Positions 1-32,907 of a stretch of 41,424 bases of DNA are shown piece after piece. The stretch spans positions 1 to 41,424 of the forward strand of contig CAZRTO010000003.1 of assembly GCA_964603025.1 (NCBI GenBank). The letters are read 5' to 3'. The position numbers and the translations under genes were made by a program. The notes beneath the pieces are model-generated. The model ran no database searches and was not told where the DNA came from. It saw only the letters and a program-made list of their open reading frames with translations. How positions within the stretch are numbered: the first letter of the stretch is position 1; every line of letters starts with the position of its first letter. The stretch comes from an uncultured bacterium. GTDB taxonomy: Bacteria > Margulisbacteria > WOR-1 > JAKLHX01.

Positions 1-2145
1 CGGCCACGCCCCGCCGAAGGCGAGGCTCCGCTAAAGCGGGGCCGAGGGCAGGCAGACATCATCCGTCATCCATCATCCGTCATCCGCCTCTACGAAGCGG
101 CCGACAGCCATACCGAAGCCTGCATTGTAAAAGAGATACTGAAAAACAAGAAAGTATCCGGATCCGATACTGTTGTCGTTCTGCCGGAACATGACATGCT
201 GCTCCCTGTGATAGCGCAGGCTTCCCCTTATATGGAGGATTTCAATATTTCTCTGGGATACCGCCTTGCGAGAAGTTCTGTTTACTATCTGTTGATGTCC
301 ATCTTCAAAGCCCAGAGCTCAAGGAAGAAGAACGGCCATTATTATTCCAGGGACTATCTTGAGGTCCTGATGCATCCCGTCGCCAAGAACTGGGAGGAGG
401 CGGTCGAGAGCCGCAGCGCCAGGATACTTGTGCACACTATAGAGGAAGCTCTCAAAGGACGGACGGTAACGGGAATATCCGGGAGCCTGTTCATAACCCT
501 GAAAGCGGTAGAGGATGACCCGTCGCTTTTATCCCTGGCTGTTGAAGAATCCGGGGCCGGATCGAACGGAGCAGACATGAAAAGGGCGCTGGTGTTCCTG
601 CATGACGTCCTTTTCAGGAACTGGGAGGACATAGGCACATTCTCTCAGCTCGCGGGGGCGGTTTCCAGATTCCTGGACGGCGCCGGGAAGCTGGGTCTAT
701 TAAAAAGCCATCCCATGAACTACGCGGTCGTTGAAAGGCTGTACGAAAAATGCGATGAGATAAAGAACTCTTCGTTCGCTGAAGAGACCTTTTCGAAGGA
801 CGATCTGATGCGGATATTCGATGAGATGATGTCCTCCGAAAAGGTCAACTTCCTGGGGACCCCGCTGAAAGGCGTTCAGGTCCTCGGGCTTTACCAGACC
901 CATTCCATAAGTTTTGACGATGTTATCTTGACCGATGCCAACGAAGGGAGCCTGCCCAAAGTACGCCCAAGCGAGCCGCTGATACCTAAAGAAGCGATGC
1001 TGATGACGGGGCTTGGGCGCGTCGAAAAGACCGAAGAAATAGAAAAATACCAGTTCAGGCGGCTTCTGGCCTCGTCTAAAACGGCGCATATCATCTACCG
1101 AAGCGACGACCGCTCCGAACGGAGCCGTTTTGTCGAGGAATTATTGTTGGAGCAGGAACGCGCTTTAGTACCTGCCTGCCGGTCAGACAGGCTTCAGCGC
1201 TTCAGCACTTCAGCTCCTCTGATCTTGACTGCGGCTTTCAATATCAATCCAATACCGTCAAAGACGCCTGTTAAGAAGACAAAACAGCAGGCGGATTTCC
1301 TCAAGCAGTTCGAATACTCGCCGACATCCGTTAACGCGTATCTTACCTGTCCGGTCAGTTTCTACTATGGTTATGTCCTCAGGCTCAGGGAACGGGAGGA
1401 CATGCTCGAACAGATAGAAGGCCGCGATATAGGCACCTTTATCCACGAGCTTTTTGAGGATGCTTACAGGCCGTTCGCTGGCAGGTCCCCGGTGCTCAAT
1501 GCCGGGTTCTACGAATCGCTCTTTGCCGCGTTCGAGCGCAAGTTCAGTTCCGAACTTGCCATGCGCATCAGGAGCGGGGATTTTATGCTCAAGGAGACCT
1601 TGAAAGCCGCTATAGGCAAGTTCGTCTCGCGCGAACGGACGCGCGATGTGGATAAGGTGATTGAACTCGAAAAAGAATACAGGACGATATTAAAGGTCCG
1701 CGGCAGCGATATCGTTATGAAAGGGAAGATAGACCGCGTTGACCTTATGCGCTCGGGCGAGATAATGATCCTAGATTACAAGACCGGAGGTTCTGATATC
1801 AAACCGTCCACTGATGTCATAGAGGTATCGTCCGCGTCGGGGGACCGAAGAGCGATAAAGAAAAAAATAAAGTCTCTTCAGCTTCCGGTGTACGTCGGTC
1901 TGGTATCCGAGAAGTACGCTTTTGAAAAATTAAATCCCGCTTTGTATTCCATAAAGAATGCCGAGCTTTCCAGTCTTTGGGAGGATCATCTTGGCCTGCC
2001 GGAACGGAAAGAGCTTTATCAGGGATATATGTCCGCTCTTGACTCGCTCCTTTCGGAAATATTGGACCCGTCAAAGGATTTTGAGCCGGATGACAGCGAT
2101 GAACGCATCTGTTCACACTGTCCGTTCTCGATGATGTGCAGGTAG
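1..2145 (+). CDS. PD-(D/E)XK nuclease family protein, AddB/RexB-like C-terminal nuclease domain with Fe-S cysteines (5' partial)
   Basis: Frame 1 has no stop from nt 1, so the listed ORF 196..2145 probably continues upstream of the window. Motifs: YLTCPVSFYYGYVLRL, GKIDRVDLM..ILDYKTG, QLPVY and terminal CSHCPFSMMC. This gives one upstream Cys plus a CxxCxxxxxC bracketing a RecB-type nuclease core, as in AddB. Confidence 0.75.
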   Translation, partial: RPRPAEGEAPLKRGRGQADIIRHPSSVIRLYEAADSHTEACIVKEILKNKKVSGSDTVVVLPEHDMLLPVIAQASPYMEDFNISLGYRLARSSVYYLLMSIFKAQSSRKKNGHYYSRDYLEVLMHPVAKNWEEAVESRSARILVHTIEEALKGRTVTGISGSLFITLKAVEDDPSLLSLAVEESGAGSNGADMKRALVFLHDVLFRNWEDIGTFSQLAGAVSRFLDGAGKLGLLKSHPMNYAVVERLYEKCDEIKNSSFAEETFSKDDLMRIFDEMMSSEKVNFLGTPLKGVQVLGLYQTHSISFDDVILTDANEGSLPKVRPSEPLIPKEAMLMTGLGRVEKTEEIEKYQFRRLLASSKTAHIIYRSDDRSERSRFVEELLLEQERALVPACRSDRLQRFSTSAPLILTAAFNINPIPSKTPVKKTKQQADFLKQFEYSPTSVNAYLTCPVSFYYGYVLRLREREDMLEQIEGRDIGTFIHELFEDAYRPFAGRSPVLNAGFYESLFAAFERKFSSELAMRIRSGDFMLKETLKAAIGKFVSRERTRDVDKVIELEKEYRTILKVRGSDIVMKGKIDRVDLMRSGEIMILDYKTGGSDIKPSTDVIEVSSASGDRRAIKKKIKSLQLPVYVGLVSEKYAFEKLNPALYSIKNAELSSLWEDHLGLPERKELYQGYMSALDSLLSEILDPSKDFEPDDSDERICSHCPFSMMCR
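61..88 (+). repeat. four tandem heptamers ATCCGTC/ATCCATC/ATCCGTC/ATCCGCC inside the AddB-like CDS, preceded by an 8-bp hairpin (24-43, loop TAAA)
   Basis: Read directly: ggctccgc-taaa-gcggggcc at 24-43, and heptamers at 61-88 encoding ..IIRHPSSVIR.. Confidence 0.8.
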
Positions 2146-2157
2146 AGGCGCCAAATT

Positions 2158-3924
2158 TTATGGGTTGAGCTGTCTTGTTAATTCTTTGTTTTTCTCGGTG
2201 GATTCATCTAACAAACAACGCAACATCCCATTTTCTGAATCCTCGATCTGTCCGTTGCTTAAAGCTTCTCGCAAATCTTTTATTATTGCCAGAAAATCTG
2301 AAGAAAAATATCCGGCATCGAATCTCTCGCCGTCCATATCAATGCATTTCTTTAGGAATAATTTGTCAAGAGTTCTTATCCTGTCTATAAAACCCCTTAT
2401 TACCGAACTGTTGGCATTTCTCCCTTTCCATGACAAAGTGCTGTTTAGATATCTGACCAGGTCTATGCTCTGAGACTCCCACAACTCGAACAATTCCGCG
2501 ACATTTTTAACGGCATTATTTTTATAGCCGATTATTGGATGAGAGACCGTGTCAAGATGGATATCAGGAGATGCATACCCATTTCTTATCAGCCTCTTGG
2601 TGAGCTGACTCCCGGCTTGCGGTCTGAGTGTCGAAAAAATCCTAGAACCATTTTTGTCCAGACCGGTCTGATCTATGAATGACCAGTTATCTCTTAACAC
2701 TTGCATTGTATCTTCTGGCGAGAAAAAAATGAATCCGACTTCATACTGCATTCCGATCACATCTCTTAATAATCTCATTGCCTCCCGGTTCTCTTCAACG
2801 GTTACTCCTTTTGCATATGTCCTGCGCAATTGTGTCGGGCTCCCGGACTCGATCCCAAGGTAAACCTTTTTGAATCCGGCTTCTTTTAAGGTCTGGAAAA
2901 GCTCTATCCTTCTTTTATTCTTTTCATCCTCGCCATCTTTAAATATCGTATCGACCCTTGCTGAAAAATGCGACATCGATATATCTCCATATCTTTTTCT
3001 AAGGGCCATTATTCCTTTTGCAATGTCCTCTGCTCTTTCAATCGTCTCATCTATTTCACAATCTGCCATGCTGCCTAAAAATTCCGAATCATTTGCCCAA
3101 AAAGTAAAACCGTTGTCATAGCCGTATCTGGCCCAGAAAGAATCTCTGCTGAGCCTGATGAACCTTTCCATTCTATCCATCATAAGATCCTTTGAAAAAG
3201 GTCTCCATTGGTGATGTGAGCCAAGATTTTGATACAGCCCTCCTATCGAACAAAAAGTGCATCTGTGCCATGAGCAGCCTCGGCTGAATTCGAGCCCAAG
3301 GCCCCAATCATCCAAAAATAATTCTGGAGCGTTGTCTTGAGTCAGTATCGGATAGCTTGATAGGTCAAGAGCCTGTTTTTGGATGTCTCCTTCAGGGCTA
3401 GTTCTTACATTTGCTATTCCTGAGTAATTATCCGGATTTCCGATATCCGGCAAGCCGGAAGCTCTCTCTACTATTTTGCGCAGCGCTTCTTCTCCCTCTC
3501 CTTCAACAATGCAGATGCCAGCAAAATCCGGGTCTTCCAAAAGCTGCCGGCCTCCGAATGTAGCAATGCTGTTGCCAGCTAATATTAATGGGGTTGGTCT
3601 TATAGCCTTGGCTGTTCTGATAAAATGAGCCGCAGCCTCTTTTGTTTCCCATTTCATGGAAAGACCGACTATATCAGGCTTTTCACTTGTTAGTCTAGCT
3701 GACATATCGAAAAGCGCACGGTTATATCTAGTATCATGGTTTGTTATAGTTTTATATTCCGGGGAGTCTAATGTGTCTTGCATATCCATTATGCTTACAT
3801 TGACAGGAGCGGCGGACTTTGCCCTTAGATATCCTCCAAGGATTCGGACGGATAATGGTCCAAGAGGACGGACATAATAATTGCGAGACGCCAGATTGAT
3901 AAGAGAAACATTTATCCCAGCCAT
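2158..3924 (-). CDS. B12-binding-domain radical SAM protein (class B-like), function unknown
   Basis: 588 aa. N-terminal Rossmann-like B12-type domain (DIVGLSMKWE...LILAGNSIATFGG...VEGEGEEAL). Cluster motif FSRGCSWHRCTFCSIGG. VYLGIESGS motif. AAGGAG SD 8 nt upstream of the ATG. Confidence 0.85.
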   Translation of the reverse strand: MAGINVSLINLASRNYYVRPLGPLSVRILGGYLRAKSAAPVNVSIMDMQDTLDSPEYKTITNHDTRYNRALFDMSARLTSEKPDIVGLSMKWETKEAAAHFIRTAKAIRPTPLILAGNSIATFGGRQLLEDPDFAGICIVEGEGEEALRKIVERASGLPDIGNPDNYSGIANVRTSPEGDIQKQALDLSSYPILTQDNAPELFLDDWGLGLEFSRGCSWHRCTFCSIGGLYQNLGSHHQWRPFSKDLMMDRMERFIRLSRDSFWARYGYDNGFTFWANDSEFLGSMADCEIDETIERAEDIAKGIMALRKRYGDISMSHFSARVDTIFKDGEDEKNKRRIELFQTLKEAGFKKVYLGIESGSPTQLRRTYAKGVTVEENREAMRLLRDVIGMQYEVGFIFFSPEDTMQVLRDNWSFIDQTGLDKNGSRIFSTLRPQAGSQLTKRLIRNGYASPDIHLDTVSHPIIGYKNNAVKNVAELFELWESQSIDLVRYLNSTLSWKGRNANSSVIRGFIDRIRTLDKLFLKKCIDMDGERFDAGYFSSDFLAIIKDLREALSNGQIEDSENGMLRCLLDESTEKNKELTRQLNP

Positions 3925-4010
3925 TGTTGATCTCCTTCTGTCTTTATATCGGAGAAAAATGTGGAAAATCTCATTCGGTCTTTACAAGCCCTCGAGTTCG
4001 GAGCACAGGG

Positions 4011-4952
4011 CTATTCTCTGAATATGATCCGGCCTTTTATCGGCGCGGTGCTTTCATGTTCGAGCGGTCTTCTGATGCAAAAACTCAACTCTGTCCTCGA
4101 CCCGCTGATTTCTTTTGCCGTAATATGTATCACCCTTTCGCCGTCTTTTGAGGGCAGTTTAAGCGGTTCAAGTACAGTATCTATCTTCTTCGGGTCCCAC
4201 GAGCGAGATCCAAGGAATGTTCTTATTGCGATAGAGACCGCTTGTGCCGGATATGGGAACTTTGCCGGATGTAAGATGTTAAAACCGAACGAGCATTTCT
4301 TGTCAGGATGGTTTTCGCAGTGCTCAAAAACAGGCGGAGCTGGGAAAGACAGAACATTATTAAGATCTGCATCCTGCGGCAACGCCTGGCGGGCCAGATC
4401 GCCGAGGGTTTTTATTTGGCATCGAAAAAAAGCATTGTTGGAAGCTTCGTTTAAAAAGTACAGGTCGTTAGTCGTTCCGCCGACAAGGTTCGTATCTGCG
4501 GAAAAAGAACTTTCAATAAGAAATCTGGAAATAGTTACGAAACCTTGGAATGCTGATATGTTCTCTTCATCATCCAGGTTCATGCCTGCTAATGTCGGAG
4601 TAAGTGAAATCCAGGTCTTCTTGTTGTCCGAGATCGATGATTCAGTAATTCCTCTGAAAGGGTTTTCGTCAATATTAGGGAAGAGGATATTCGAATGCGC
4701 TCCTTTCAGCGAAGGCAAGTATCCGAATCTGATTAAGCCGTTATCGGTGGCGACATTAAAACACGTTACTTTTTCATCGTTCTGTTTGTAATCATGATAT
4801 AGGCGGCTATTTGGATCAAGGATCATGTCCGTGTGGTGCCTGAATTCAACTGTGTTAACGATCCGCGGTCTCTCCATCCCATGCCGCCACAGCGATATCC
4901 GCGTGATGCCGCTGGGGGGGATGGGGCTTGAGGTTGCGCCGTATATTTTCAT
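4011..4952 (-). CDS. hypothetical protein, paralog of the 220-aa protein upstream (shared PPSGIT..LWR.G motif) with an extra ~100-aa Cys-containing C-terminal region
   Basis: 313-aa ORF co-directional with the rSAM gene. Local similarity to the 5021..5683 product: IPPSGITRISLWRHG vs APPSGITKFRLWRTG; CFNVATD vs LFNIAID; AFQGFVTISRF vs AFDGSIRIARF; LGDLARQAL vs ISDLAHKAL. This supports the - strand frame over the antisense 276-aa ORF. Confidence 0.7.
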   Translation of the reverse strand: MKIYGATSSPIPPSGITRISLWRHGMERPRIVNTVEFRHHTDMILDPNSRLYHDYKQNDEKVTCFNVATDNGLIRFGYLPSLKGAHSNILFPNIDENPFRGITESSISDNKKTWISLTPTLAGMNLDDEENISAFQGFVTISRFLIESSFSADTNLVGGTTNDLYFLNEASNNAFFRCQIKTLGDLARQALPQDADLNNVLSFPAPPVFEHCENHPDKKCSFGFNILHPAKFPYPAQAVSIAIRTFLGSRSWDPKKIDTVLEPLKLPSKDGERVIHITAKEISGSRTELSFCIRRPLEHESTAPIKGRIIFRE

Positions 4953-5020
4953 TAGTATTTCTTTCTCAATGGCATCTGTTTATTCATCGAAAATCATTGA
5001 TGAGGATTTCAAGCGGGGGG

Positions 5021-5683
5021 TCAGCTTCCGGTGGCTGAGCCGTCACTACCCAGGAACTCTCCCGAAAGCGCCTTGTGGGCAAGGTCTGAGATCGTTACTA
5101 TGGGCCGGGGATCGTACGGCGGTTTTGTCAGCCGGCACAGATCAAATTCCATCGACGGATCCATCCTGGTCCATGCCGGGAGCCCGTTCTTTACAAAAAA
5201 GCGCGCGATACGTATAGAGCCGTCGAAAGCAGCGGCCTTGTAATCCTGTCCCAGAGAGTATATCAGCGAGTTCGTCGCGGACAACAGCATATTGACGGCT
5301 CCGGTCTTTGATATTTCCGTATTTCCGGTGAATCTATGCCCTGAATTGAAGGGCGCGTGTATATCGAGATGATTCGCGCGCTCGTTCTTTTTAAGCGTTA
5401 TCAGACCCAGGTATAATATGTCCCCGTCGATAGCGATGTTAAACAGAGTTTTTTTATGCCCAAGTTCCGCGATCGCCTTTCGCATCTCAAACAAGCCCGG
5501 CGAGCGGAATCCTTTGTCTCCCGTTCTCCATAACCTGAATTTTGTTATGCCTGAAGGCGGGGCGGCGATCAGTTCAGAAACTGCCCTGTCGCGTATCATT
5601 GCAAGAGAATTTACAACAGAGTGCAGTGCCGGGCCGCGGTTGAGGGGCGCGGCATGCGCCGGTATTAGCCTAATATTGGTCAA
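5021..5683 (-). CDS. hypothetical protein, first gene of the cassette, paralog of the 313-aa protein
   Basis: 220-aa ORF. TTG start (reverse complement of caa at 5681-5683) preceded by GAGGGG 8 nt upstream. Paralogy as described for 4011..4952. Confidence 0.7.
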   Translation of the reverse strand: MTNIRLIPAHAAPLNRGPALHSVVNSLAMIRDRAVSELIAAPPSGITKFRLWRTGDKGFRSPGLFEMRKAIAELGHKKTLFNIAIDGDILYLGLITLKKNERANHLDIHAPFNSGHRFTGNTEISKTGAVNMLLSATNSLIYSLGQDYKAAAFDGSIRIARFFVKNGLPAWTRMDPSMEFDLCRLTKPPYDPRPIVTISDLAHKALSGEFLGSDGSATGS

Positions 5684-5741
5684 TTGTATATCCCCTCATA
5701 TTATCTTATCGCCCAAAACAGGGGCCTGATTTCACTTTGTG

Positions 5742-5750
5742 TGATAAAAT
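5742..5750 (+). promoter_or_regulatory. extended -10 element (TGaTAAAAT) 9 nt upstream of the rmuC ATG
   Basis: tgataaaat at 5742-5750, then atctacacg, then ATG at 5760. No SD. Confidence 0.4.
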
Positions 5751-5759
5751 ATCTACACG

Positions 5760-6887
5760 ATGGCATATGTAGCGGTATTCATCCTCGGTTCCATTTTTGG
5801 CGCGGCTGCTGTGTTCCTGATCAACAGGTCGCAAATGTCGCATCTAAAAGACTCGTTCAAGGCGCTTTCTTCCGATGTTTTTTCCAAGAACGCCCAGGAT
5901 TTCCTTGCGATGGCCAACGAGGTCCTGTCGAAGTACACAAAGACCGGCGAGAACACTCTCGAAAGCAAAAAGCAGCTTATCGACCAGACTCTGGGCAACA
6001 TGAAGGACGATCTGGTGAAAGTTGCCGACCTGATGAAGACGCTCGAAAAGGACAGGGAGAACAAGTTCGGCGAGATTTCCACTCAGTTAAAATATACGGT
6101 CGAACAGACCACCAGGCTTCAGGACACGACGAACAAACTTCAAAGTGTTCTGGCCAGCACCAAGGCAAGAGGGCAGTGGGGCGAGCGGATGGCGGAGGAT
6201 GTGCTGCGCCTGGCGGGATTTGTCGAAGGGATAAATTACAGAAAGCAAAAAGCTCTCGAGTTCAGCACAAAAAGGCCGGATTATTCGTTTATTTTGCCGC
6301 AGGGCCAGATAGTCAACATGGACGTGAAATTCCCGCTCAACAGCTATCTTCAGTTTGTCGCCTCAGATAACGAAGTCGAAAAAAAGAGCTACAAAGAACA
6401 GTTCTTGCGAGATGTGAAGGGGCGGATCAAGGAAGTGACGACCAGGGACTATATTAATCCTGAAGATAATACTGTTGATTATGTGATAGTTTTTGTTCCC
6501 AACGAACAGGTCTATTCTTTCATCAATGAGTCCGACAACACGATCCTGGACGAAGCACTTAAAAATAAAGTGATCTTTTGTTCGCCGCTCACGCTTTACG
6601 CGATACTTGCGGTGATAAGGCAGGCGATGGACAACTTCAAGCTGGAAAAGACCGCGGCCGAGATGTCCGGTCTTTTCGGCACGTTCTACAAGCAGTGGGC
6701 CATGTTCACAAAGTCCATGGAAAAGATGGGCAAAAGTATCGACGACGCCCAGAAGGAGTTCCAGGTGCTTGTTTCAACCCGCCGCAACCAGCTGGAGCGG
6801 CCTCTCAAGAAGATCGAGGACCTGCGCGTGAGCAAGGGGATCCCGATAGCCGCGGAAGAGAACGGGACAAAAGAGCTTACAGAATAA
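5760..6887 (+). CDS. rmuC: DNA recombination protein RmuC
   Basis: 375 aa. N-terminal TM helix, long coiled-coil region, then RGQWGERMAEDVLRLAGF and a C-terminal nuclease-like domain typical of RmuC. Confidence 0.85.
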   Translation: MAYVAVFILGSIFGAAAVFLINRSQMSHLKDSFKALSSDVFSKNAQDFLAMANEVLSKYTKTGENTLESKKQLIDQTLGNMKDDLVKVADLMKTLEKDRENKFGEISTQLKYTVEQTTRLQDTTNKLQSVLASTKARGQWGERMAEDVLRLAGFVEGINYRKQKALEFSTKRPDYSFILPQGQIVNMDVKFPLNSYLQFVASDNEVEKKSYKEQFLRDVKGRIKEVTTRDYINPEDNTVDYVIVFVPNEQVYSFINESDNTILDEALKNKVIFCSPLTLYAILAVIRQAMDNFKLEKTAAEMSGLFGTFYKQWAMFTKSMEKMGKSIDDAQKEFQVLVSTRRNQLERPLKKIEDLRVSKGIPIAAEENGTKELTE

Positions 6888-6905
6888 TTTCGGAGGTAAA
6901 CAAAT

Positions 6906-7292
6906 ATGATGTACAAAGTCGAGGTCAAGAACAAAGGCGGGTCGGAAGTCTATGTTAAATCCGCGTCAGGACAGTTCGCGGTGGATCTGGACGGCAAGAC
7001 CGGCGTGACACCGCTGGACGCGCTGCTCGGATCGCTCGGCTCCTGTATGGCCTATTTTATAAGAAAATTCGCAAAGTCCGCGAATATCCAGATGGATATG
7101 TTCAAGCTCGATCTTGAAGCCGATCTTGTCTCTGATAACGGCTACAAGTTCAAAAAGATCAACGTTGCGATCGATACAGATGGGGCAGTCCTGGATGACG
7201 CGAAAAAAATGTCGCTTGTCGAATTTGTCAAGAATTGTCCGACGCATAACACGCTGAGAAGCGGGCCGGAAATAGAGATAAAAGTATTGTAG
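6906..7292 (+). CDS. OsmC/Ohr family protein
   Basis: 128 aa. PLDALLGSLGSCMAYF and NCPTHNTL motifs (two conserved Cys) typical of OsmC-like peroxiredoxins. GGAGG-like SD (cggaggtaaac) upstream. Confidence 0.8.
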   Translation: MMYKVEVKNKGGSEVYVKSASGQFAVDLDGKTGVTPLDALLGSLGSCMAYFIRKFAKSANIQMDMFKLDLEADLVSDNGYKFKKINVAIDTDGAVLDDAKKMSLVEFVKNCPTHNTLRSGPEIEIKVL

Positions 7293-7293
7293 A

Positions 7294-7333
7294 AAGGGCC
7301 CATAAAGGCCCGTAAAGGCATAAAAGGCGGAAG
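7294..7333 (+). repeat. ~40-nt intergenic repeat, copy 1: AAGGGCCCATAAAGGCCCGTAAAGGCATAAAAGGCGGAAG
   Basis: 32/40 identical (hand alignment) to the reverse complement of 33028-33067, and also similar to 32947-32986. Contains internal tandem GGCCCRTAAA units. Confidence 0.75.
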
Positions 7334-7378
7334 ACTCGCAGCTTACAGCACGCTCCCTTCGACAAGCTCAAGGTCGCT

Positions 7379-7410
7379 ACGGCTAACGGCTTTCTGAAAC
7401 CGTTAGCCGT
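7379..7410. repeat. perfect 11-bp inverted repeat (ACGGCTAACGG - 10 nt - CCGTTAGCCGT) between the convergent OsmC-like and mtaB genes
   Basis: Read directly. A weaker outer pairing (CTTACAGC / GCTGTAGG, one G:T) extends it. There is no T-tract on either side, so it is not a canonical intrinsic terminator. Confidence 0.7.
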
Positions 7411-7438
7411 GAGCTGTAGGCCCGACAGGGCCGTGCCG

Positions 7439-8689
7439 TCAGCCTTCAATATATTCAACAGATGCTTTTGTCGCCTTTATTTTGGCGATCCCGCCTATCA
7501 GCCCGTCTTCCCCGTCCGTGAAAACCCTGACATAGTCCTGTGTTAGTCCTTCGAGGCGGCCGGTCTTTTTGTCGCGCTGTTCGACGAATACCGCAATATC
7601 CTTGCCGATCATATTTTTATTGTATTTCAGCATTAGCTCATCTCTCAGGTTTTTCATCACCCCGGCTCTCGCCGCTATTTCTTTGACAGGGACTTTTCCG
7701 TCCATTTTTGAGGCAGGAGTTCCGGGCCTGGGGGAAAACCTGAAAACGTGAATGCGCGAAAACCCGATATCCCGGCAGAATTTTACGGTGTTTTGGAACT
7801 GCTCTTCCTTTTCTTCTGGAAATCCTACGATCACATCTGTTGAGATCGCTATGCCTGGGACCTTATGCCGTATTCTTTCCGCTAGTTTTGAGTAACCATC
7901 ACCCGAATATTTTCTGTTCATCGCATTTAAGATGTTATCATCACCGCTTTGAAGAGGGATATGCAGGTGCCGGCAGATCTTATTGTTGCCCGCGATCACT
8001 TCCAACAGTTCGTTTGATATGTTCAGCGGCTCTATTGAGCTGATCCGCACTCTCAAAATGTCTTCGAAATCCGATATCTTTTTCAATATCAAAGGTAGAT
8101 CTTTGTTAGCGCCGGTGTTTATCCCCGTTAGGACGAGCTCTCTGATCCCTCTGTTTGCGCAGTCCCTTGCCTGGGAAAGTATATCGTCGACCGGATAAGA
8201 GATCTCCCGGCCCCTGGCGTATGGGACGATACAGTACGAACAGAAATTATTGCAGCCGTTTTGGATTATCAAATTGGCGCGGAGGCGGGGGAGATCGGAT
8301 GACGGATGACGGATGTCGGATGACGAGGGAGCCGACACTTTAGTGTCGGGCCATTCGTTTAAGAGGCGGGCAATTGTATCCTCAAATCCATCTTTATCCC
8401 TCAGAACTACGATATTATTGTTATTAAAGATCTCTTCCGCACCGTCGCTCATGTTGATGAAGCAGCCGGTGATGATAAGCTTTTTACATCTGTTTGAAAG
8501 ACTTCTTATCGTTTGTCTTGATTTTTTGTCCGCAAGCTGTGTGACCGTGCACGTGTTGATCGCCGCGATATCCGAATTTTTCTTGAAATCCACGACCTCC
8601 AGTCCCAGCGATAGGGCGGCCTCCTGCATCTTCAGCGTTTCCGCCTGGTTCATTTTGCATCCCAGTGTATGAAAAGAGATGGTTTTCAT
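7439..8689 (-). CDS. mtaB: MiaB-like methylthiotransferase, MtaB type (tRNA t6A37 methylthiotransferase)
   Basis: 416 aa. N-terminal MTTase domain (FHTLGCKMNQAE, INTCTVT). Radical SAM motif CNNFCSYC. C-terminal TRAM-like region. Start overlaps the prmC stop by 4 nt. Confidence 0.85.
   Translation of the reverse strand: MKTISFHTLGCKMNQAETLKMQEAALSLGLEVVDFKKNSDIAAINTCTVTQLADKKSRQTIRSLSNRCKKLIITGCFINMSDGAEEIFNNNNIVVLRDKDGFEDTIARLLNEWPDTKVSAPSSSDIRHPSSDLPRLRANLIIQNGCNNFCSYCIVPYARGREISYPVDDILSQARDCANRGIRELVLTGINTGANKDLPLILKKISDFEDILRVRISSIEPLNISNELLEVIAGNNKICRHLHIPLQSGDDNILNAMNRKYSGDGYSKLAERIRHKVPGIAISTDVIVGFPEEKEEQFQNTVKFCRDIGFSRIHVFRFSPRPGTPASKMDGKVPVKEIAARAGVMKNLRDELMLKYNKNMIGKDIAVFVEQRDKKTGRLEGLTQDYVRVFTDGEDGLIGGIAKIKATKASVEYIEG
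8297..8349 (-). repeat. four tandem heptamers (GGATGAC x2, GGATGTC, GGATGAC on the + strand; GTCATCC-type on the coding strand) next to a 7-bp hairpin (8332-8349, loop TAAA on the coding strand), inside the mtaB linker
   Basis: Read directly: heptamers at 8297-8324 and ccgacac-ttta-gtgtcgg at 8332-8349. They encode ..SSSDIRHPSSDLP.. in MtaB. Orientation relative to the coding strand is the same as for the copy at 24-88. Confidence 0.8.
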
Positions 8690-11991: not shown

Positions 11992-13022
11992 AGAAGAATG
12001 AGCCTCTGCTCAGCTCAAAGTCCATGGATTCCATCCAGAGGATAATGCCCCCTGTCATATTCGTTATATGCGCTGTTCTGACCGGAACTATAGGGTACAT
12101 CATCATAGAGAAAATGTCTCCGCTGGACTCTTTATATTTGACGGTTGCGAGCATGTTCCTTACGGTGAGCTATCTTGATACTATAAAATTCTCCGAAACA
12201 GGAAAGATATTTTCCGTGTTCTTTCTGGTGTTCGGCGTATTCTCCGTGTTCTATGCTGTCGGCACGATAATCGAGTTCATAGTTGAAGGAAATATTTTAG
12301 GTATCAGGAGGAGAAAAAAGATGGATGAAAAGATCAAACATATGAAAGACCATTATATTATCTGCGGCTACGGCAGGGTCGGGCACCAGATATCGGAGGA
12401 GTTGAGGGCACATAAAAAACCTTTTGTGGTCATAGATCAGAAAGAAAATACTGCCGAAGAGCTAAACTCCAATGGTATCCCTTATTTCATCGGCAGCCTG
12501 TCGGACGATGTCCTGTTGGAAAAGGCGGGAATATCCCGCGCTAAAGTGCTTTTTGCCGCGGCCGACAGCGATGTGGACAACGTGTACGTGACCCTGGCCG
12601 CCAAGGTCGTGAACCCGAATATCTTCATAGTTGCGCGTGCCAGCCACAAAGAGACCGAGAGCAAGCTCAAAAAAGCCGGGGCGGGCAAAGTGATCAGCCC
12701 GTATTTTATAGCCGGCAGCAGGATGGCTTCCATGGCTGTGAGCCCTGTTTCTGTCGAGTTCCTTGATATAGCGATGGGCAGCGAGAACGTGGAAATGTGG
12801 GTGAGAGAATTCAAGATCGGTGACGGCTCTCCGCTTGCCGGGAAAACGCTCGGGGAGGCCAACGTAAGGAAAGCGACCGGCACAATGATACTCTCCATCA
12901 AAAAAGCTTCCGGCGGATTTGAGCTGACGCCCAAGTCTTCCAGCCTTATAGAAAAAGGCGATATCCTGGTCGCTCTGGGCACGGGCCAGCAGCTGATCTG
13001 CCTTGAGAACGCGTTAAAATAA
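11988..13022 (+). CDS. 2-TM potassium-channel-like protein with RCK (TrkA-N/TrkA-C) domains, MthK-like architecture
   Basis: Start chosen at the ATG in the ATGA overlap with the asd stop (MKKNEPLL...). Two TM helices flank a pore-like segment. Rossmann motif ICGYGRVGHQI. C-terminal TrkA-C-like domain. Confidence 0.8.
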   Translation: MKKNEPLLSSKSMDSIQRIMPPVIFVICAVLTGTIGYIIIEKMSPLDSLYLTVASMFLTVSYLDTIKFSETGKIFSVFFLVFGVFSVFYAVGTIIEFIVEGNILGIRRRKKMDEKIKHMKDHYIICGYGRVGHQISEELRAHKKPFVVIDQKENTAEELNSNGIPYFIGSLSDDVLLEKAGISRAKVLFAAADSDVDNVYVTLAAKVVNPNIFIVARASHKETESKLKKAGAGKVISPYFIAGSRMASMAVSPVSVEFLDIAMGSENVEMWVREFKIGDGSPLAGKTLGEANVRKATGTMILSIKKASGGFELTPKSSSLIEKGDILVALGTGQQLICLENALK

Positions 13023-20186: not shown

Positions 20187-20771
20187 ATGTGTGCCATGAA
20201 AGAGAAGAAAGTGATCTGGGTGACCGGGCCGGCAGGGGCGGGCAAGGACGAAGTTTGCCGCATGCTCGAAAAAGAGGGCTTTTATACCGTAGATGCCGAC
20301 AGAATAGGGCATAAGATACTCAATAAAAAAAAGAACGCGTTAAAACAAGTGTTCGGCGGCCCGGTGGTCAGGAACGGAAGGGTCGACCGCAAGGTCCTGG
20401 GAAAACGGGTTTTTGGCAGCAAGGCGGCTTTGAAAAAGTTGAACTCCATTGTCCACCCAGGGCTGATAATGGGCATCAGGTCCGCCGTGAGTTCCTGCGG
20501 CCGGGCAAGGATCGCCATAAACGCGGCCCTCTACAAAGAACTTTGCCCAGCTTTTCCGGATGCTCCGGTAGTCTCTGTGCTTGCTTCAAGGGCTCTCCGG
20601 GCCCAAAGGCTGGTCGTGTCCAGAAGGATGCCGCGGAACGAGGCAGAGGCCCTTATCGGAGCGCAGCAGAAGGACAGCTACTACAAGAGAGTGTCCGATT
20701 TTCTGATACTTAACGACGGTGGCTTGGGTCGGTTAAGGCGCGAGGTCAAGAAACTGCAGTTCATTTTCTGA
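20187..20771 (+). CDS. coaE: dephospho-CoA kinase
   Basis: P-loop VTGPAGAGK, DADRIGHKIL, VHPGL and overall CoaE pattern. The start could instead be the in-frame ATG at 20196. Confidence 0.8.
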   Translation: MCAMKEKKVIWVTGPAGAGKDEVCRMLEKEGFYTVDADRIGHKILNKKKNALKQVFGGPVVRNGRVDRKVLGKRVFGSKAALKKLNSIVHPGLIMGIRSAVSSCGRARIAINAALYKELCPAFPDAPVVSVLASRALRAQRLVVSRRMPRNEAEALIGAQQKDSYYKRVSDFLILNDGGLGRLRREVKKLQFIF

Positions 20772-22902
20772 TTATATGTCTTTCTATCCTGTACAGCTGT
20801 GTCTGTTTGTCCCCTTCGGCCGTAACTTCGAGGGTGTTCATTCCCGTTATGAGCGCCGTTCTTTCGGAGAACCAGGAAGCATTTCGGTCAAGCTTCAGTT
20901 TTTTTCTGTTGACAGATACGCTTTTTACCTCAGCGCTTGATATCCTGGCGGATGTCAGCACCGAAGAATGACCGGTATCGATCCGCTTGTCGGGCAGAGG
21001 GATGAGATCAAATACCGTGTGCGCGGAAACTTCCGCCGAAGGAGCGGCCGCCGAAAATTCGGCCTCTATGGAGCTTTGTATAAGAGGGGTTTTGGACAGC
21101 ATAAAAGCGACCTCTCCTCGGGTTATGTTCTTATTGGGCTCAAGATCGGTGCCGATAACAAAATCGAGCATGCCTTTTTTCTTTGCGTGATCGATATCCC
21201 TCACGGCCCAGTTGTCTATGGCTATATCCGGATAAGGCGACACGGACACGGGCTCCAGGCTCGCGCCGGAGAACCTTGATATGATCACCGCCGCTTCCGC
21301 TCTTGATACGTTCTTCGCGGGCCTGAACGTGCCGTCCGGATAACCCTTTACAAGCCCTTCTCTTGCGGCTATGGACGCGAATCCCGCAGCCCAGTAGGTG
21401 ACAGGCACGTCCTTGAAATCGCGTTTTGAGGCGTGAGCTTCCTTGTGGCCGAGGGCCTTGACCAGCAGAGTCACCAGCTCGGCGCGGACGATAGGCTGTT
21501 CCGGCTTGAAAGTACCGTCGGAGTAACCTCTCATTATCCCCAGATTATTAAGGTGAGCTATCGCGTCCTTGGCAAAATTGTCAGAACCCACATCCTCTAT
21601 GACAGGAGCCCTGAGTATGTGCAGCTGGGCCGTGGCTGTCCCTGTTTCAGGGGAAGACACCAGAGCTTCTATGCTGATCACGTTGGGGCCCTTTGCAAGA
21701 TGAGGCCAGAACACCTCGAATGAATTCGCGGTGCTAAGGGCCATGATATCCCTGCCGTTAACTTTAACCGCTTTTATCTCGTGCGCATTTTCTACGGATG
21801 CGGCTATGTCCACCGCTTCGTCCGTTACCGAGGACTTATCTTTGGGTGAGAGTATGTTCAGGACATAGTCGCCTTTTTTTGGAGCAAATTTAGGTTTTTC
21901 GGGTTCCGGAGCGTATGTAAGAGTGAAGATATGGCTGTTGTTGGAACTTACGGGATCGGATTTGTAAGCGTAATCGAACCGGAACTGTGACTGTTCAAGT
22001 CCTATGCCGTAACTCAGCCCTGCGTCTGGAGCGCTCTGGTCATAACCCAGCCTGAGAGCAAGGGTCTTGATCGGCTTCCATTCGAGCCCGGTCCTGAAGA
22101 CCATTCCGTTGGAATAAGAGAGAGTTTCCCGGGGCATTTCTATATCAACGGCCCCGACTATGTCGTGTCCCTGCAGGCGGTCCTCAAAAAGAGAGTCCTT
22201 GCCCGCCAGATGGAACTGTCCTCCCAGTTTTATCGCTCCTCCAAGCGTGTCCGAAGCGGATGATGCGCCGCTCCATGACAGGGGAGATGATAAGAGGTTT
22301 TGGTAGGCAAGGCCCGCCGAAAGCCACGGCAAGCTTTCCGGACAGTAGATCACGCCAATGTCCAAGTCCATCGCGGTGCCTCTTGCGGAGCTGTTGGGTC
22401 CTGATATGCTCTGGTTGTAGGTCTTCAGGCTGGCACCCAGGGACAGGTCTCCGGCGAACTCTATTCTTTTTGAATACGCCAGAACGAGCATGCTGTTCTC
22501 ATAGCCGATAGCTTCAGCCGACGGGTCGAGTATTATTCTTCCTGTAACGGAGGGCTCCCTGATCGTCGGGAACGAATTGCCGGCATTCAAGCCGACGAAC
22601 CCCAGTCCTAATGTCCCGAAACCCGTTTTTATGGATCCTGCTGCCGTGGTCTGGTTAACATCCCCGAGCAGATTGCTGGATGTGCCGGATATCTGCCAGT
22701 ATCTGGAAAAGTCCAGAGAAGCCGGGTTTGAAAATATGTTATTAGGGTCGGCTTTGTCGGCCAAGGTAGCCCGCCCCATGCCTATCTGGCGCGCGCCGAA
22801 GGAATACATTGACGGGTTCAGCACCGTGCCTGCCCGGGCGCATGCCGCAAGACCAGATAAGACCAGGCAGAATAAGAAAAACGTCTTGAGCGTATGTTTC
22901 AT
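20761..22902 (-). CDS. outer-membrane beta-barrel (PorV/FadL/TraF-like N-terminal motif) fused to an Ig-like domain, three SLH domains and a C-terminal Ig-like domain
   Basis: 713 aa. Signal peptide with a possible lipobox (LAAC). GARQIGMGRATLA...IFSNPASL motif. Alternating-polarity barrel region ending HIFTLTY (about aa 25-330). SLH repeats at about aa 434-606 (FKDVPVTYWAAGFASIAAREGLVKGYPDGTFRP...SRAEAAVIISRF and two more). Confidence 0.8.
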   Translation of the reverse strand: MKHTLKTFFLFCLVLSGLAACARAGTVLNPSMYSFGARQIGMGRATLADKADPNNIFSNPASLDFSRYWQISGTSSNLLGDVNQTTAAGSIKTGFGTLGLGFVGLNAGNSFPTIREPSVTGRIILDPSAEAIGYENSMLVLAYSKRIEFAGDLSLGASLKTYNQSISGPNSSARGTAMDLDIGVIYCPESLPWLSAGLAYQNLLSSPLSWSGASSASDTLGGAIKLGGQFHLAGKDSLFEDRLQGHDIVGAVDIEMPRETLSYSNGMVFRTGLEWKPIKTLALRLGYDQSAPDAGLSYGIGLEQSQFRFDYAYKSDPVSSNNSHIFTLTYAPEPEKPKFAPKKGDYVLNILSPKDKSSVTDEAVDIAASVENAHEIKAVKVNGRDIMALSTANSFEVFWPHLAKGPNVISIEALVSSPETGTATAQLHILRAPVIEDVGSDNFAKDAIAHLNNLGIMRGYSDGTFKPEQPIVRAELVTLLVKALGHKEAHASKRDFKDVPVTYWAAGFASIAAREGLVKGYPDGTFRPAKNVSRAEAAVIISRFSGASLEPVSVSPYPDIAIDNWAVRDIDHAKKKGMLDFVIGTDLEPNKNITRGEVAFMLSKTPLIQSSIEAEFSAAAPSAEVSAHTVFDLIPLPDKRIDTGHSSVLTSARISSAEVKSVSVNRKKLKLDRNASWFSERTALITGMNTLEVTAEGDKQTQLYRIERHIIRK

Positions 22903-23613: not shown

Positions 23614-25482
23614 CTAAAAAGTCAGGCTCACCGCAACGGTCTGGTTCCACTTTATGTCCGATGCGGTCAGATTGTCCATGATCTTGTCCATCGGGACCCC
23701 TTTGCTCTTTAAAGTGGCCACTGTCCCGGGGATGTCGGCAGCCGCAGTATAGGAAAGCTTCCAGTTGTCCCTGCCGGTATAAAACGTCCAGAATATGGGC
23801 TTTGCGATGTTGGTGTAGAGCAGATCAACGGAATAGAGACTGACCGCCGAAAGCGCGTCCACGCCCAGCGCGATCCCCGTTTTTGCTCCGGTTATTTCAG
23901 TCTGCAGTCCCAGGTCCAGCTTCGCCGGAAGAAAAGGGATCCCCTGAGGGAATGTGCTGTCTATCTTTTCCTGGACTTCCGCGTTATCGGCCGTCGGTTT
24001 TGATACTACCCCCACGCCGCCGCGCAGCCATATGGGGAGCGCGAATATCTGTGTTTCCGATCCGAGCCTCAGGACATTGATGTTGCTTATACCTACATCG
24101 ACACGTGTTCCGGTGGAATCTACAACCTGTATTATCATCGGGTTGGACCTTGTTTCGTAGTCAAGGGCTATGAGAAATGGCTTTGTAGTGTGCATGCCTA
24201 ACCGGATCTTTTTCGGGAGCTCGTACGTTTTGGACGGTTCCATGTATAACCCCTGTCCGTCCGGGAACACAAAATCCGTAGACCCGTACTCAAAAGGCGA
24301 CCAGTTGATCCCTTCGGCCGGGTCTATGTCGGGGTTCTCGGTGTTGAAGCGGTGGTTGGCATAATACGATAATCCTCTCCCTTTCATGTCGAGAACGGCT
24401 CCGCCCATGTTCTCGGCGACAAGGCTGAATGCCAGCCAGGGTTGGGGATCCCACATAAGTCCGAGATCCTGTCTGACGCAGGAGCCGGAATAGATCCCTG
24501 ACCATCTCGCGTCTGCCACTATCTCGCCCTCGGGCACCTGTATGACACTGGCTTTGTAGCCCGATGAGGTGCCGTAACGAGCGGGATCCGTTGTCCAAGC
24601 AGCCACATCAACAGGATCATCCGGATCGAAATTGGGAGTATAGAATATCAAATCCGATGCGGAAGTGCTCACTATCGCCCTTGCCGAGTTGTCAAATTCG
24701 GTACGTACGCTTATGGGTGTTAAGTTAAGTCCTGCCGAGAACTGGCCGTATTTAACAGCTCCGGTCATGGTCATGGAATTCTGCATCGATAAGCTGTTCC
24801 TGAAAGAAGTTTTTGCCGATGTCGGCAGTATTAGGTCCTGTGTCAGGAACCCGCTCCAGACCCTGTCCGAGGATGTGTAGGGGATCCCTCCGACGGTATA
24901 GGTCAGCTTGCCGTCGGTTATCGAGAGATTGTCCTGTGAGAAGTTGTTAAGGTCCGACGAGTATTTGGAAGTGACCGGTACACTTCCGGCCACGTCCCAG
25001 CTGGCATCAAGGGGATTGAGTGTTTTTACTCCGACAGCGAGCCAGTCGTTGAATTTGATGGCCTGATCGAACTCAAGCGATGAACCGGGATTGTTGTATC
25101 CGGCCAGCGTCGTTGCGGTCCTCTCTTTTTTTACCAGATCGGAAGGATCGTCCGTGAAATATATGCCGTTGGCAAATCCGCTCCCGGCTTCGAACTCGTT
25201 ATCCTCCACCTTGAAATTGTTGCTGAACGAAGAAACGAGTTTCCCCAATGGTATCTGGGCGTTGGCCTCCGCGGTCGGTATCCTGGTCAGTCCCGCGGGG
25301 TTCCACAGCGCGGAGGTCATGCCTCTGGCAAGCGAGCCGTAATAGATGCCTATGCCCGGGATCGGGTCTTCGTATATAGGCAGGCTCAGGGTGAGGTTGG
25401 AATATGGGAAATTGAAGTCGGCCACTGCCGGAGAGGCCGCCAGGATCGATGTTAAAAGCAAGAAAAACAGGATCTTTTTCAT
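23614..25482 (-). CDS. outer-membrane beta-barrel protein (PorV/FadL-like motif)
   Basis: 622 aa. Signal peptide (ASPAVADF). [17 protein letters not shown] motif. C-terminal beta-signal ending ...VAVSLTF (terminal Phe). Confidence 0.75.
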
Positions 25483-32224: not shown

Positions 32225-32713
32225 ATGGCAAAAGAGATAAAACCTGGAAAAAAGTTCAAATACTCGCTTGACAGTGTACTCAAAGTCAAGGAGATACGCG
32301 AAAAAAAAGAGCAGGAGAAATTTGCGCTCAGGCAGAAAGAGTACTATGAAGAAAAAATGAAGGAACAGCGCATTCAGGATGAAAAGCGCGGCCAGGCCAA
32401 TGAATTCAAAAAACTCGTTTCAAAAGGCGCCATTCCGGATTTCGGCAATGTTCTTTCACGAAGGCAGCATCTGATCGTGCTTAAAGAGGCCCTGGACCAG
32501 CAGATAGAAAAGGTCATAGAATCCAGCCAGAAGCTCGAGAAGCAGCGCGAAAAGCTGCTCGAATCCATGAAGGAACGCAAGATAATCGAGAAGGACAAGG
32601 ACAACAAGAAAAAACAATACGACGAAGTGATGAAACAATATGAGATAAAATTCCTGGACGAAGTAGCCACGCTAAGGTTCAGCAGGGACAAAGGTAAGGA
32701 AAAAGTGCTTTGA
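32225..32713 (+). CDS. FliJ-like coiled-coil protein (K/E-rich), assignment tentative
   Basis: 162 aa. N-terminal FKYSLDSVLKVKE resembles the F+F.L.K+L..+E start of FliJ family proteins. The rest is predicted coiled coil, with an ...EKDKDNKKKQYDEVMKQYEIKFLDEVA C-terminal pattern. The ATG follows the upstream TAA with no spacer. Confidence 0.5.
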   Translation: MAKEIKPGKKFKYSLDSVLKVKEIREKKEQEKFALRQKEYYEEKMKEQRIQDEKRGQANEFKKLVSKGAIPDFGNVLSRRQHLIVLKEALDQQIEKVIESSQKLEKQREKLLESMKERKIIEKDKDNKKKQYDEVMKQYEIKFLDEVATLRFSRDKGKEKVL

Positions 32714-32715
32714 GC

Positions 32716-32907
32716 TCAGACGGCTTTTTTTACCTTGCCGGATTTAAGACATTTGGTGCAGACATACTCTTTCAGCTTTTTGCCCTTATAGAGAATGTTG
32801 AGCTTCTGCAGATTGGGCAGCCAGCGCCTTTTGGTCTTAATGTTCGAATGGGAGACCCTGTTGCCCGATAAAGAACCCTTGTTGCATACGAAACATCTTC
32901 TTGACAT
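32716..32907 (-). CDS. rpmB: 50S ribosomal protein L28
   Basis: The conserved L28 N-terminus [22 protein letters not shown] starts at the internal ATG (reverse complement of cat at 32905-32907) with GGAG 8-10 nt upstream. The 83-aa listed ORF is an upstream over-extension. Confidence 0.9.

Follow-up and report, generated by a model that had tools for sequence, protein, structure and literature searches.

The window analysed here, 41,424 nucleotides (nt) of DNA from an uncultured bacterium of the Margulisbacteria, carries between addB and rmuC an islet of three minus-strand genes that encode a protein of 220 amino acids (aa), a protein of 313 aa and a cobalamin (B12)-type radical S-adenosylmethionine (rSAM) enzyme of 588 aa (Table 1). 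An earlier interpretation made from the letters alone (hereafter the sequence-only reading) had described three co-directional open reading frames (ORFs) with these lengths, with a TTG start for the 220-aa gene and with spacers of 86 and 68 nt, the latter between the 220-aa and 313-aa genes, and all of this is exactly as it had been given. The Shine–Dalgarno (SD) sequences that it had claimed are also present: GAGGGG, which by direct reading sits 8 nt ahead of the TTG of the 220-aa gene, and AGGAG before the ATG of the rSAM gene. Pfam identifies the flanks as the AddB-like nuclease and rmuC that it had named (E = 1e-29 and E = 7e-68). The addB reading frame is open from the first base of the window, its product is 95–99% identical in amino-acid sequence to that of the related contigs L004 and L008, and addB and the rSAM gene converge with 12 nt between their stop codons.

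Table 1. Features of the rmuC–addB islet and its flanks, in window coordinates
Feature	Position	Strand	Basis or remark
addB, 3' part (PD-(D/E)XK nuclease subunit)	1..2145	+	Pfam PDDEXK_1, E = 1e-29; truncated at the left edge of the window
Strain-variable 1.86-kb segment (rSAM gene and upstream spacer)	2144..4004	.	blastn against L004, junctions read directly
rSAM gene, 588 aa, ATG start	2158..3924	-	Pfam B12-binding and Radical_SAM
Spacer from 313-aa gene to rSAM gene, 86 nt	3925..4010	-	Holds the AGGAG SD of the rSAM gene
313-aa gene	4011..4952	-	ORF list
C-terminal domain of the 313-aa protein (aa 195-313)	4011..4370	-	86-100% aa identity to L004/L008
Recombination junction, encodes IKTLGDLARQALPQD, the conserved C-terminal motif of the module	4371..4416	-	Two DNA alignments overlap by 46 nt
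Hypervariable module body of the 313-aa gene	4417..4865	-	aa 30-194 when the junction is included; 24% identical to L004 in amino-acid sequence
N-terminal anchor of the 313-aa gene, encodes MKIYGATSSPIPPSGITRISLWRHGMERP	4866..4952	-	100% aa identity to L004
220-aa gene, TTG start	5021..5683	-	Constant paralogue: ~40-aa N-terminal helix and one module
76-nt intergenic region between the divergent 220-aa gene and rmuC	5684..5759	.	Sequence read directly
rmuC, right flank of the variable islet	5760..6887	+	Pfam RmuC, E = 7e-68; 83-100% aa identity across loci

The islet is composite. Its first two genes encode paralogues built from a domain of about 170 aa that matches no family in the databases searched, one of them constant and the other hypervariable, whereas the third is cargo that only some strains carry. 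A search of 5.8 billion proteins gave 12 protein clusters that resemble the 313-aa protein and 4 that resemble the 220-aa protein, and the related contigs, of which L013 is assigned to Candidatus Margulisiibacteriota, share a backbone of L31, RF1, PrmC, MtaB, OsmC, RmuC, the islet, AddB and AddA. In every one of the eight related loci that extend into this slot (L001–L004, L007–L009 and L013), rmuC and addB are separated by the pair of 220-aa and ~310-aa genes, in each as a gene of 218–220 aa followed by a single gene of about 305–337 aa, with an extra 339/364-aa gene between the two in L007, L008 and L009. What comes after the ~310-aa gene differs: in L004, L007 and L013 the next gene is addB itself, L001–L003 have an unrelated ORF of 139 aa there, and the rSAM gene occupies the position in the window, L005, L008 and L009 only. 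By tblastn the rSAM is missing from six of the ten related loci (L001–L004, L007 and L013), and this negative state is found on contigs as long as 148 kb and 219 kb. L004 and L005 encode an identical 305-aa allele and only L005 has the rSAM gene; L004 lacks it despite being 95% identical to the window in the flanks, and has about 31 nt where the window has the 1.86-kb segment, a clean indel around which no direct repeats are visible in the junction sequences of the two contigs. All copies of the rSAM are at least 98% identical, which points to one recent acquisition in one sublineage, whereas the 220-aa orthologues diverge down to 72% identity; judged from these identities, the rSAM gene is a single recent acquisition and the pair is much older in the lineage.

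Two further observations concern the variability of this region. In the NCBI metagenome-assembled genome GCA_029573595.1 (L001:11027-11560), the cargo slot holds the 139-aa ORF, which has no Pfam or PADLOC match and is followed, just before addB, by degenerate AGCTTAT-like tandem repeats. Close to the islet there is a second presence/absence polymorphism, in which mtaB and osmC are separated by a small gene for a GIY-YIG nuclease in L001, L002 and L007 but not in the window or L004 (window 7293-7438 compared with L001:7273-7614 and L007:3707-3991).

Composition agrees with the suggestion of the sequence-only reading that at least part of the cassette is foreign or under different constraints, and the computed values bear out and sharpen its hand counts. 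In the computed profiles the rSAM gene (GC 42.8%, and 41.1% at third codon positions, GC3) has z = -4.8 against 1,767-bp windows elsewhere in the 41-kb window and shows the largest tetranucleotide distance (z = 4.7), which makes it the strongest compositional outlier there. The 313-aa gene is intermediate (GC 46.4%, GC3 50.6%), with a GC of 61% in its N-terminal anchor, and the 220-aa gene is native-like (GC 52.8%, GC3 59.3%) next to neighbouring genes with a GC3 of 54–67%. That the rSAM or the module came from a phage or a plasmid was considered and rejected, as neither has a phage match and plasmid rSAMs are only 23–29% identical. Rfam and tRNA scans of the window returned no match, and hence there is no tRNA-linked integration site in it.

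These comparisons bear on the proposal of the sequence-only reading that one operon encodes all three components of a single pathway, where the B12-dependent rSAM would act with or on the heteromeric pair, for example in radical C-methylation of a metabolite or in modification of the 313-aa protein. The arrangement invites it: the genes are co-directional, with short spacers, an SD for each and no predicted terminator between the 313-aa gene and the rSAM gene, the rSAM, when present, always lies directly downstream of the ~310-aa paralogue in this lineage, and the reduced GC3 reaches into the 313-aa gene. Yet the synteny comparison shows the pair standing without the rSAM, including in L004, which shares its 305-aa allele with an rSAM-positive strain, and the near-identity of the rSAM copies does not match the divergence of the pair members. 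We analysed 32 further loci of the rSAM family, 29 of them obtained by scanning metagenomes and three through protein look-ups, and none has a module protein nearby; the rSAM family has other conserved partners, and the window rSAM is closest to OxsB rather than to the methylases. Non-synteny in related genomes, which the sequence-only reading had itself named as speaking against a three-gene unit, is what was found, given one recent acquisition next to a much older pair. We therefore regard a single pathway as distinctly unlikely.

The two small proteins are clear paralogues, as had been proposed: BLASTP aligns them with 29% identity over 183 aa (E = 2e-11), and all four of the motifs quoted for them are present in both. 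The shared module of about 170 aa occurs in three architectures, namely behind an N-terminal helix of about 40 aa in the 220-aa protein, ahead of a C-terminal domain of about 120 aa in the ~310-aa protein, and as two tandem copies in the 339/364-aa proteins. Its signature is the motif series PPSGIT..LWR.G, FN, an invariant His, (I/V)R.ARF..E.GFP and TLGDLA..L. For the family as a whole we define it more broadly, as PPSG(I/V), FN, G, H, P, G, (I/V)R.ARF..E.G and T.(G).LA in a β-α-β4-α fold. A profile of 48 module copies matches both window proteins (E = 2e-45 and 7e-40), and conservation over these copies reaches at least 80% at F81, G93, H105, P111, G120, A160-R161, G167, T197 and L201-A202 in the numbering of the 220-aa protein. 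Both window proteins keep the conserved F, G, H, P, G, R, T, L and A positions, and in the 313-aa protein S replaces the consensus A (before R143) and G (ENG).

Neither protein could be assigned by the sequence-only reading, and the database and Foldseek searches found no known family for them either, with no match in Pfam, NCBIfam, PADLOC or PHROGs at E ≤ 1. A 32-member module profile had no match in the PDB, where sequence-profile searches gave chance matches only (E ≥ 0.28). The AlphaFold2 models of the 220-aa protein (predicted local distance difference test (pLDDT) 76.6, predicted template modelling score (pTM) 0.73) and of the 313-aa protein (pLDDT 82.4, pTM 0.59) both lay out the module as β-α-β4-α-α. 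Foldseek found nothing at E < 1e-3 for both models against the PDB or for the 220-aa model against BFVD; the best matches, to GMF/ADF-H (E = 0.018) and to hot-dog proteins (E = 0.012), have a target TM score of at most 0.45. Accordingly, neither the ADF-H/gelsolin-like resemblance of the module nor the weak hot-dog resemblance of the C-terminal domain (E ≥ 0.012) was adopted. The C-terminal domain itself is lineage-specific, with no occurrence outside the lineage in a profile search. As far as these searches reach, the module is a new domain family, without a counterpart in Pfam, NCBIfam, PADLOC, PHROGs, the PDB or the Foldseek searches.

When 1.84 billion representative proteins were searched exhaustively with a module profile, 44 relatives emerged at E ≤ 1e-3. 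Outside the Margulisiibacteriota these are either stand-alone proteins of 162–230 aa or multidomain proteins of 550–6,700 aa with one to three internal copies, and most of all relatives are internal domains of giant proteins of 2,000–6,700 aa (E down to 2e-18), one of which is an NCBI entry of Candidatus Omnitrophota annotated through its GNAT domain only. The other domains of the giant proteins comprise GNAT, methyltransferase, metallophosphatase, NUDIX, HD, kinase, HEAT, TPR and pentapeptide domains, a content that, in its GNAT, methyltransferase, HD and kinase domains, fits the ‘multi-enzyme’ (‘module 1’) class of Omnitrophota giant proteins (bioRxiv 10.64898/2026.06.07.730766). GNAT was considered as a constant partner of the module and is not consistent in that role, and a per-member scan of 32 diverse module copies revealed no recurrent Pfam family. 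The module-bearing giant proteins examined contain no rSAM, CYTH or Tmk-like domains, and the rSAM-bearing giant ORFs contain no module.

One neighbour does recur. An HPr-like domain lies 7–148 residues from the module in the giant proteins P0069, P0072, P0074/P0075, P0078 and P0079, so that five of the six non-redundant giant proteins with an HPr have it within 150 residues of the module (P = 6e-5 under random placement), and a gene for a phosphotransferase system (PTS) EIIA follows that of the stand-alone module protein P0077 (L014:3016-3459). No HPr is encoded in the window. The proximity is a contextual hint and not evidence of function here, and it makes the invariant His worth testing for a part in ligand binding or as a phospho-His. 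As observations on the giant proteins themselves, many begin with the same signal-like sequence (..FL.ND..FA) and have a C-terminal domain in common, and each carries a short interdomain repeat of its own, GEKSYPAG (P0068), ARTST.D (P0072), DRAMTA (P0078), DEQSAES (P0079) and RSEMRE (P0092), which look like polyprotein linkers or processing sites.

The constant and the variable paralogue differ sharply in how they evolve. Between the window and L004, amino-acid identity is 94% for OsmC, 99% for RmuC, 96% for the 220-aa protein and 95% for AddB, and in the ~310-aa protein it is 100% over the first 29 residues, 24% over the module body (aa 30–194) and 86% over the C-terminal domain. The same conserved–variable–conserved pattern is seen against L001, L007 and L008. 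At the DNA level the variable segment cannot be aligned by blastn; its nonsynonymous divergence (dN) is 0.63–0.99 and its synonymous divergence (dS) is saturated, which indicates old alleles rather than recent mutations. Fold-defining residues are kept in all ~310-aa alleles despite this divergence, and the C-terminal domain has a dN/dS ratio of 0.10–0.22. The 220-aa gene has a dN/dS of 0.10–0.16, indicating purifying selection, and its product is 218–220 aa long in all related loci.

The comparison with L008 locates how such alleles are assembled. Window positions 4371-7667 match L008 1-3238 at 97.7% and positions 1-4416 match L008 4268-8683 at 99.7%; the N-terminus and module of the 313-aa protein are 99.4% identical to the first module of the 339-aa protein of L008, and its C-terminal domain is 100% identical to that of the 311-aa protein of L008. 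On these alignments the 313-aa gene of the window is a recombinant of the first module of the 339-aa gene and the C-terminal domain of the 311-aa gene. In addition, about 62 nt at 4866-4928, which encode part of PIPPSGITRISLWRHGMERP, recur at 88–92% identity in L007, L008 and L009, where they lie at the start of the ~310-aa paralogue further downstream. With the junction inside the C-terminal motif and this stretch recurring at the 5' end, the two ends of the module act as recombination anchors, and, as read from the DNA sequences, these anchors let module cassettes be swapped, duplicated and deleted. A diversity-generating retroelement was also considered as the source of the variation and rejected: the locus has no reverse transcriptase gene and no repeat that pairs with the variable segment, and alleles that differ at about 75% of residues are far beyond adenine-directed mutagenesis. 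No repeats or silent cassettes that could drive the variation were found within the window.

Because all the data come from assemblies and a 46-nt repeat could collapse when short k-mers are used, we also considered that the ORFs are not genes or that the mosaic and the indel are metagenome mis-assemblies. We give this hardly any credence. A 313-aa protein with 99% identity (P0002) is encoded on an independent contig, which argues against an artefact, and the same architectures occur in JGI, ENA, NCBI and Logan assemblies; the 220-aa gene and the C-terminal domain are under purifying selection, the AlphaFold2 models are confident, and the long contigs described above carry the rSAM-negative state.

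The position of the pair raises the possibility that the module proteins are lineage-specific accessory factors of RmuC or AddAB, such as nuclease regulators or inhibitors, whose variability would stem from relaxed constraint or from co-evolution with AddAB-targeting proteins of mobile elements. The rmuC–addB position is invariant in all relatives, the 220-aa gene shares its divergent 76-nt intergenic region, presumably a promoter region common to both genes, with rmuC (one weak promoter-like match lies at 5677-5704 on the plus strand), and the 220-aa protein is as conserved as RmuC. Elsewhere, however, relatives of the module sit in giant multi-enzyme proteins or among small genes of unrelated kinds, away from any repair gene. 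Signatures of DNA binding or nuclease activity were not found, and relaxed constraint fails to explain why fold-defining residues are kept in alleles that are 24% identical. An accessory role in repair is thus unlikely in our view. As a separate observation, rmuC next to it has roughly three times the dS of the 220-aa gene (1.01 versus 0.34 against L001, and 1.40 versus 0.57 against L007), and the low value in the 220-aa gene suggests extra nucleotide-level constraint or recombinational homogenization.

The cargo gene encodes what had been recognized as a B12-type rSAM enzyme, and both Pfam domains score above their cut-offs (B12-binding PF02310, 37.2 bits against 32.1, residues 69–151; Radical_SAM PF04055, 33.6 bits against 29.5). 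Its cluster motif is Cx4Cx2C (RGCSWHRCTFC), with C217, C222 and C225 invariant in 17 family members. The single significant sequence relative in the PDB is OxsB (5UL2; E = 6e-25, residues 68–420 aligned with OxsB 163–496). None of the curated NCBIfam models for B12-dependent rSAM enzymes that we compared (HpnR, BchE, RiPP C-methyltransferase, ArsL, MCR Gln methyltransferase, KedN5, PhpK and HpnJ) is reached; the best is HpnR with 48.4 bits against a cut-off of 650, and the rest stay below 42 bits against cut-offs of 251–750. The nearest homologues outside the lineage are 47% identical and come from Candidatus Saganbacteria, followed by others at 32–38% identity in Margulisiibacteriota, Falkowbacteria and Omnitrophota. 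The family also occurs as an internal domain of giant ORFs (L025:3-11576, more than 3,858 aa, and L041:337-6696, 2,120 aa).

What recurs beside the rSAM family are two enzymes of nucleotide metabolism. A CYTH gene of about 185 aa adjoins the rSAM gene in 14 of the 32 loci and a P-loop kinase gene of about 195 aa in 15, and both are present in 12 (L012, L018–L021, L027–L029, L031, L032, L039 and L048), usually in the order CYTH, rSAM, kinase and with gaps below 130 nt. The profile of the 185-aa family matches PDB 2FBL/3TYP (E = 1e-18), which we take to be the CYTH-domain inorganic triphosphatase of Nitrosomonas europaea, and the kinase belongs to the thymidylate/deoxynucleoside kinase family (PF02223, 53 bits). 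The genes upstream of three rSAM homologues (L010, 362 aa; L011, 264 aa; L012, 196 aa) were considered as module relatives and are not related; that of L010 encodes an ankyrin-repeat protein and that of L012 the CYTH protein. We found no earlier description of an rSAM, CYTH and Tmk cluster in the searchable literature. OxsB acts together with the phosphohydrolase OxsA on the deoxyadenosine phosphates dAMP, dADP and dATP (PMC9204698), and this mode of action, taken with the CYTH and kinase partners, points to a phosphorylated nucleoside as the substrate of the family, on which it most likely performs radical chemistry. The window enzyme adds a new member to a known class; it falls in an OxsB-like clade that is unstudied and whose partners are not described in the searchable literature, and it is probably directed at nucleotides.

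A locus for a ribosomally synthesized and post-translationally modified peptide (RiPP), in which the rSAM would mature a nearby precursor, finds little in these data and is highly improbable. The NCBIfam model for RiPP C-methyltransferases gives a weak partial match of 39.9 bits, far under its cut-off of 281.85, and a 20-aa ORF (MRFSTFFSDIKTEGDQQWLG; 3912-3974, minus strand) does lie upstream of the rSAM gene. This ORF, the only one in the spacers, overlaps the SD and start codon of the rSAM gene and has no SD of its own, no SPASM or RiPP recognition element domain and no supported precursor were found, and the partners of the rSAM family elsewhere are nucleotide enzymes. The sequence-only reading had seen no precursor-peptide ORF and no classical RiPP locus here, and in essence both judgements stand.

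Alternatively, the whole islet could serve anti-phage defence, with the rSAM making a modified, chain-terminating or toxic nucleotide, as in the pairing of viperin with a kinase or in oxetanocin, and the module proteins acting as sensors or regulators. The partner kinase of the family matches PADLOC PDC-M51B (E = 1e-18) and VakA (E = 3e-15), and one rSAM homologue, P0025, matches PDC-M51A (E = 1e-8); we found no usable literature on PDC-M51 or VakA. An OxsB-like enzyme in a strain-variable locus that combines foreign cargo with a hypervariable protein would also suit such a role. Set against this, the window rSAM and the module proteins have no PADLOC match, the kinase and CYTH partners are missing from the window, the pair lacks the rSAM in most strains, and there are neither phage-borne relatives nor neighbouring defence genes. 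An islet devoted as a whole to anti-phage defence appears improbable to us.

We instead favour, with a probability of roughly one half, a locus in which two unrelated units, the module pair and an imported rSAM gene, occupy one rmuC–addB slot whose content varies from strain to strain, with the pair working as a recognition-type hetero-oligomer and the rSAM acting on a nucleotide. The first unit is an old pair or trio of cytoplasmic proteins made from the ~170-aa α/β module, in which a constant 220-aa copy is held by purifying selection and a ~310-aa copy carries highly divergent alleles of the module body, which homologous recombination at the conserved coding sequences of the module ends exchanges, duplicates and deletes. 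The paralogues may form a constant-plus-variable hetero-oligomer whose conserved His/Arg core would bind a common ligand or partner while the variable surface sets specificity. Their role would then be one of recognition or conflict (defence, immunity or self-recognition) under diversifying or balancing selection. The second unit is the recently acquired OxsB-like enzyme in the downstream cargo position, which would act on a phosphorylated nucleoside, presumably relying on kinases and phosphatases of the host. One can go a step further and picture an intracellular recognition or defence locus in which the constant and hypervariable proteins are sensors of an invader or partner that, in some strains, are coupled to an OxsB-like rSAM rearranging a (deoxy)nucleotide to an antiviral analogue; we consider this a long shot.

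Several points weigh against the two-unit reading. The rSAM gene is co-directional with the 313-aa gene and lies 86 nt downstream of it, with no terminator predicted between them (and no terminator or promoter predicted anywhere in the spacer, 3925..4010), and the low GC reaches into the 313-aa gene (GC3 about 48–51%); together these make a functional link in rSAM-positive strains possible. Such a link may be opportunistic; the pair does not need it, and it is no property of the rSAM family. The recognition or conflict role is read from the pattern of variation, and ancient alleles kept for other reasons would look alike. No defence-related gene stands among the scanned genes of the window, leaving aside the question of the islet itself, and the surroundings are housekeeping; the window rSAM has no PADLOC match at E ≤ 1, and the same is true of both module proteins. 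The whole window is devoid of CYTH and Tmk-like ORFs, and both are likewise missing beside the closest relative, L010, and in several other loci, so the nucleotide assignment may fail to transfer to this subclade. Finally, all sequences are metagenome assemblies, in which a collapsed repeat could in principle have produced the 46-nt junction.

The other genes scanned in the window are housekeeping genes, among them those for SerRS, ComEC, UvrB, RNase J, RecG and RmlA/B-type sugar-nucleotide enzymes, and no genes for cobalamin synthesis or uptake were seen in the 41 kb. Two more local GC dips (43%) lie at 12001-12500 and 32501-33000, and a 622-aa ORF without a Pfam match (23614-25482, minus strand) is found near the gene for a protein with S-layer homology (SLH) domains (20761-22902, minus strand).

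These results matter in several ways. Through the new domain family, small proteins from the cytoplasm of Margulisiibacteriota are connected with stretches of giant proteins that had no annotation, one such protein being labelled Omnitrophota, and its motif signature, with the invariant His and Arg, is open to mutagenesis. The allelic diversification is extreme, with 24% identity inside genes whose neighbours are 95–99% identical and with the anchors of exchange visible, and because such variation usually marks molecular recognition under conflict, it offers a way into the biology of a phylum that has not been cultivated. An orphan OxsB-like clade of B12-dependent rSAM enzymes with CYTH and deoxynucleoside monophosphate kinase-like partners predicts radical chemistry on nucleotides, touches a candidate anti-phage system and is directly testable in vitro; should it prove true, a system of sensors and a B12-dependent rSAM for antiviral nucleotides would extend viperin-like chemistry to cobalamin-dependent enzymes. 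For annotation, the lesson is that unrelated units which only recently came to lie side by side can pass for a tidy co-directional ‘operon’.

Among characterized enzymes, the window rSAM is most usefully compared with OxsB of oxetanocin-A biosynthesis (5UL2). Both have a B12-binding Rossmann domain followed by the radical SAM core, and the RGCSWHRCTFC of the window aligns with RGCDYSRCTFC of OxsB, whose Cx4Cx2C departs from the typical Cx3Cx2C (PMC9204698). Relatives of the window enzyme adjoin nucleotide enzymes that handle phosphate, much as OxsB is partnered by OxsA. In contrast to the 744 aa of OxsB, the window enzyme has 588 aa, without domain I at the N-terminus of the four-domain OxsB and with a C-terminal region of its own of about 170 aa; no gene for an HD-domain OxsA lies in or beside the locus, and the partners of the family are instead the CYTH triphosphatase and the Tmk-like kinase, both missing in the window.

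With the class B rSAM methyltransferases and cyclases (HpnR, BchE, RiPP C-methyltransferases, KedN5 and PhpK), the window enzyme shares the two-domain architecture and partial NCBIfam matches (1e-13 to 1e-5), whereas its scores are far under the cut-offs, its motif is Cx4Cx2C rather than Cx3Cx2C and no genes of a methyl-acceptor pathway are nearby. The likeness to the candidate system PDC-M51 lies in the family, through the kinase that matches component B and P0025 that matches component A, and does not extend to the window rSAM, which has neither a PADLOC match nor a kinase neighbour. Viperin paired with a kinase, an rSAM enzyme joined to a nucleotide kinase, would provide the parallel of a radical enzyme working on a nucleotide that a kinase supplies or processes.

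For the module pair, the closest comparison is with the giant multi-enzyme proteins, one of them labelled Omnitrophota, which contain between one and three copies of this ~170-aa module. There the module is internal to chains of 2,000–6,700 aa, often near an HPr-like domain and in several cases behind a signal-peptide-like N-terminus, whereas the window proteins are small, cytoplasmic and stand-alone, with a lineage-specific C-terminal domain. The target-recognition domains of type I restriction HsdS and polymorphic toxin/immunity arrays are cassette loci with conserved recombination anchors, and the islet is like them in that a hypervariable segment sits between conserved coding sequence and alleles are shuffled, duplicated or deleted by homologous recombination between near-identical strains. 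It differs from them in having no relation in sequence or fold and no methylase, restriction, toxin or secretion genes nearby. The recombining hypervariable module cassette resembles such known polymorphic loci and is related to none of them, and here both partners are paralogues of one new domain.

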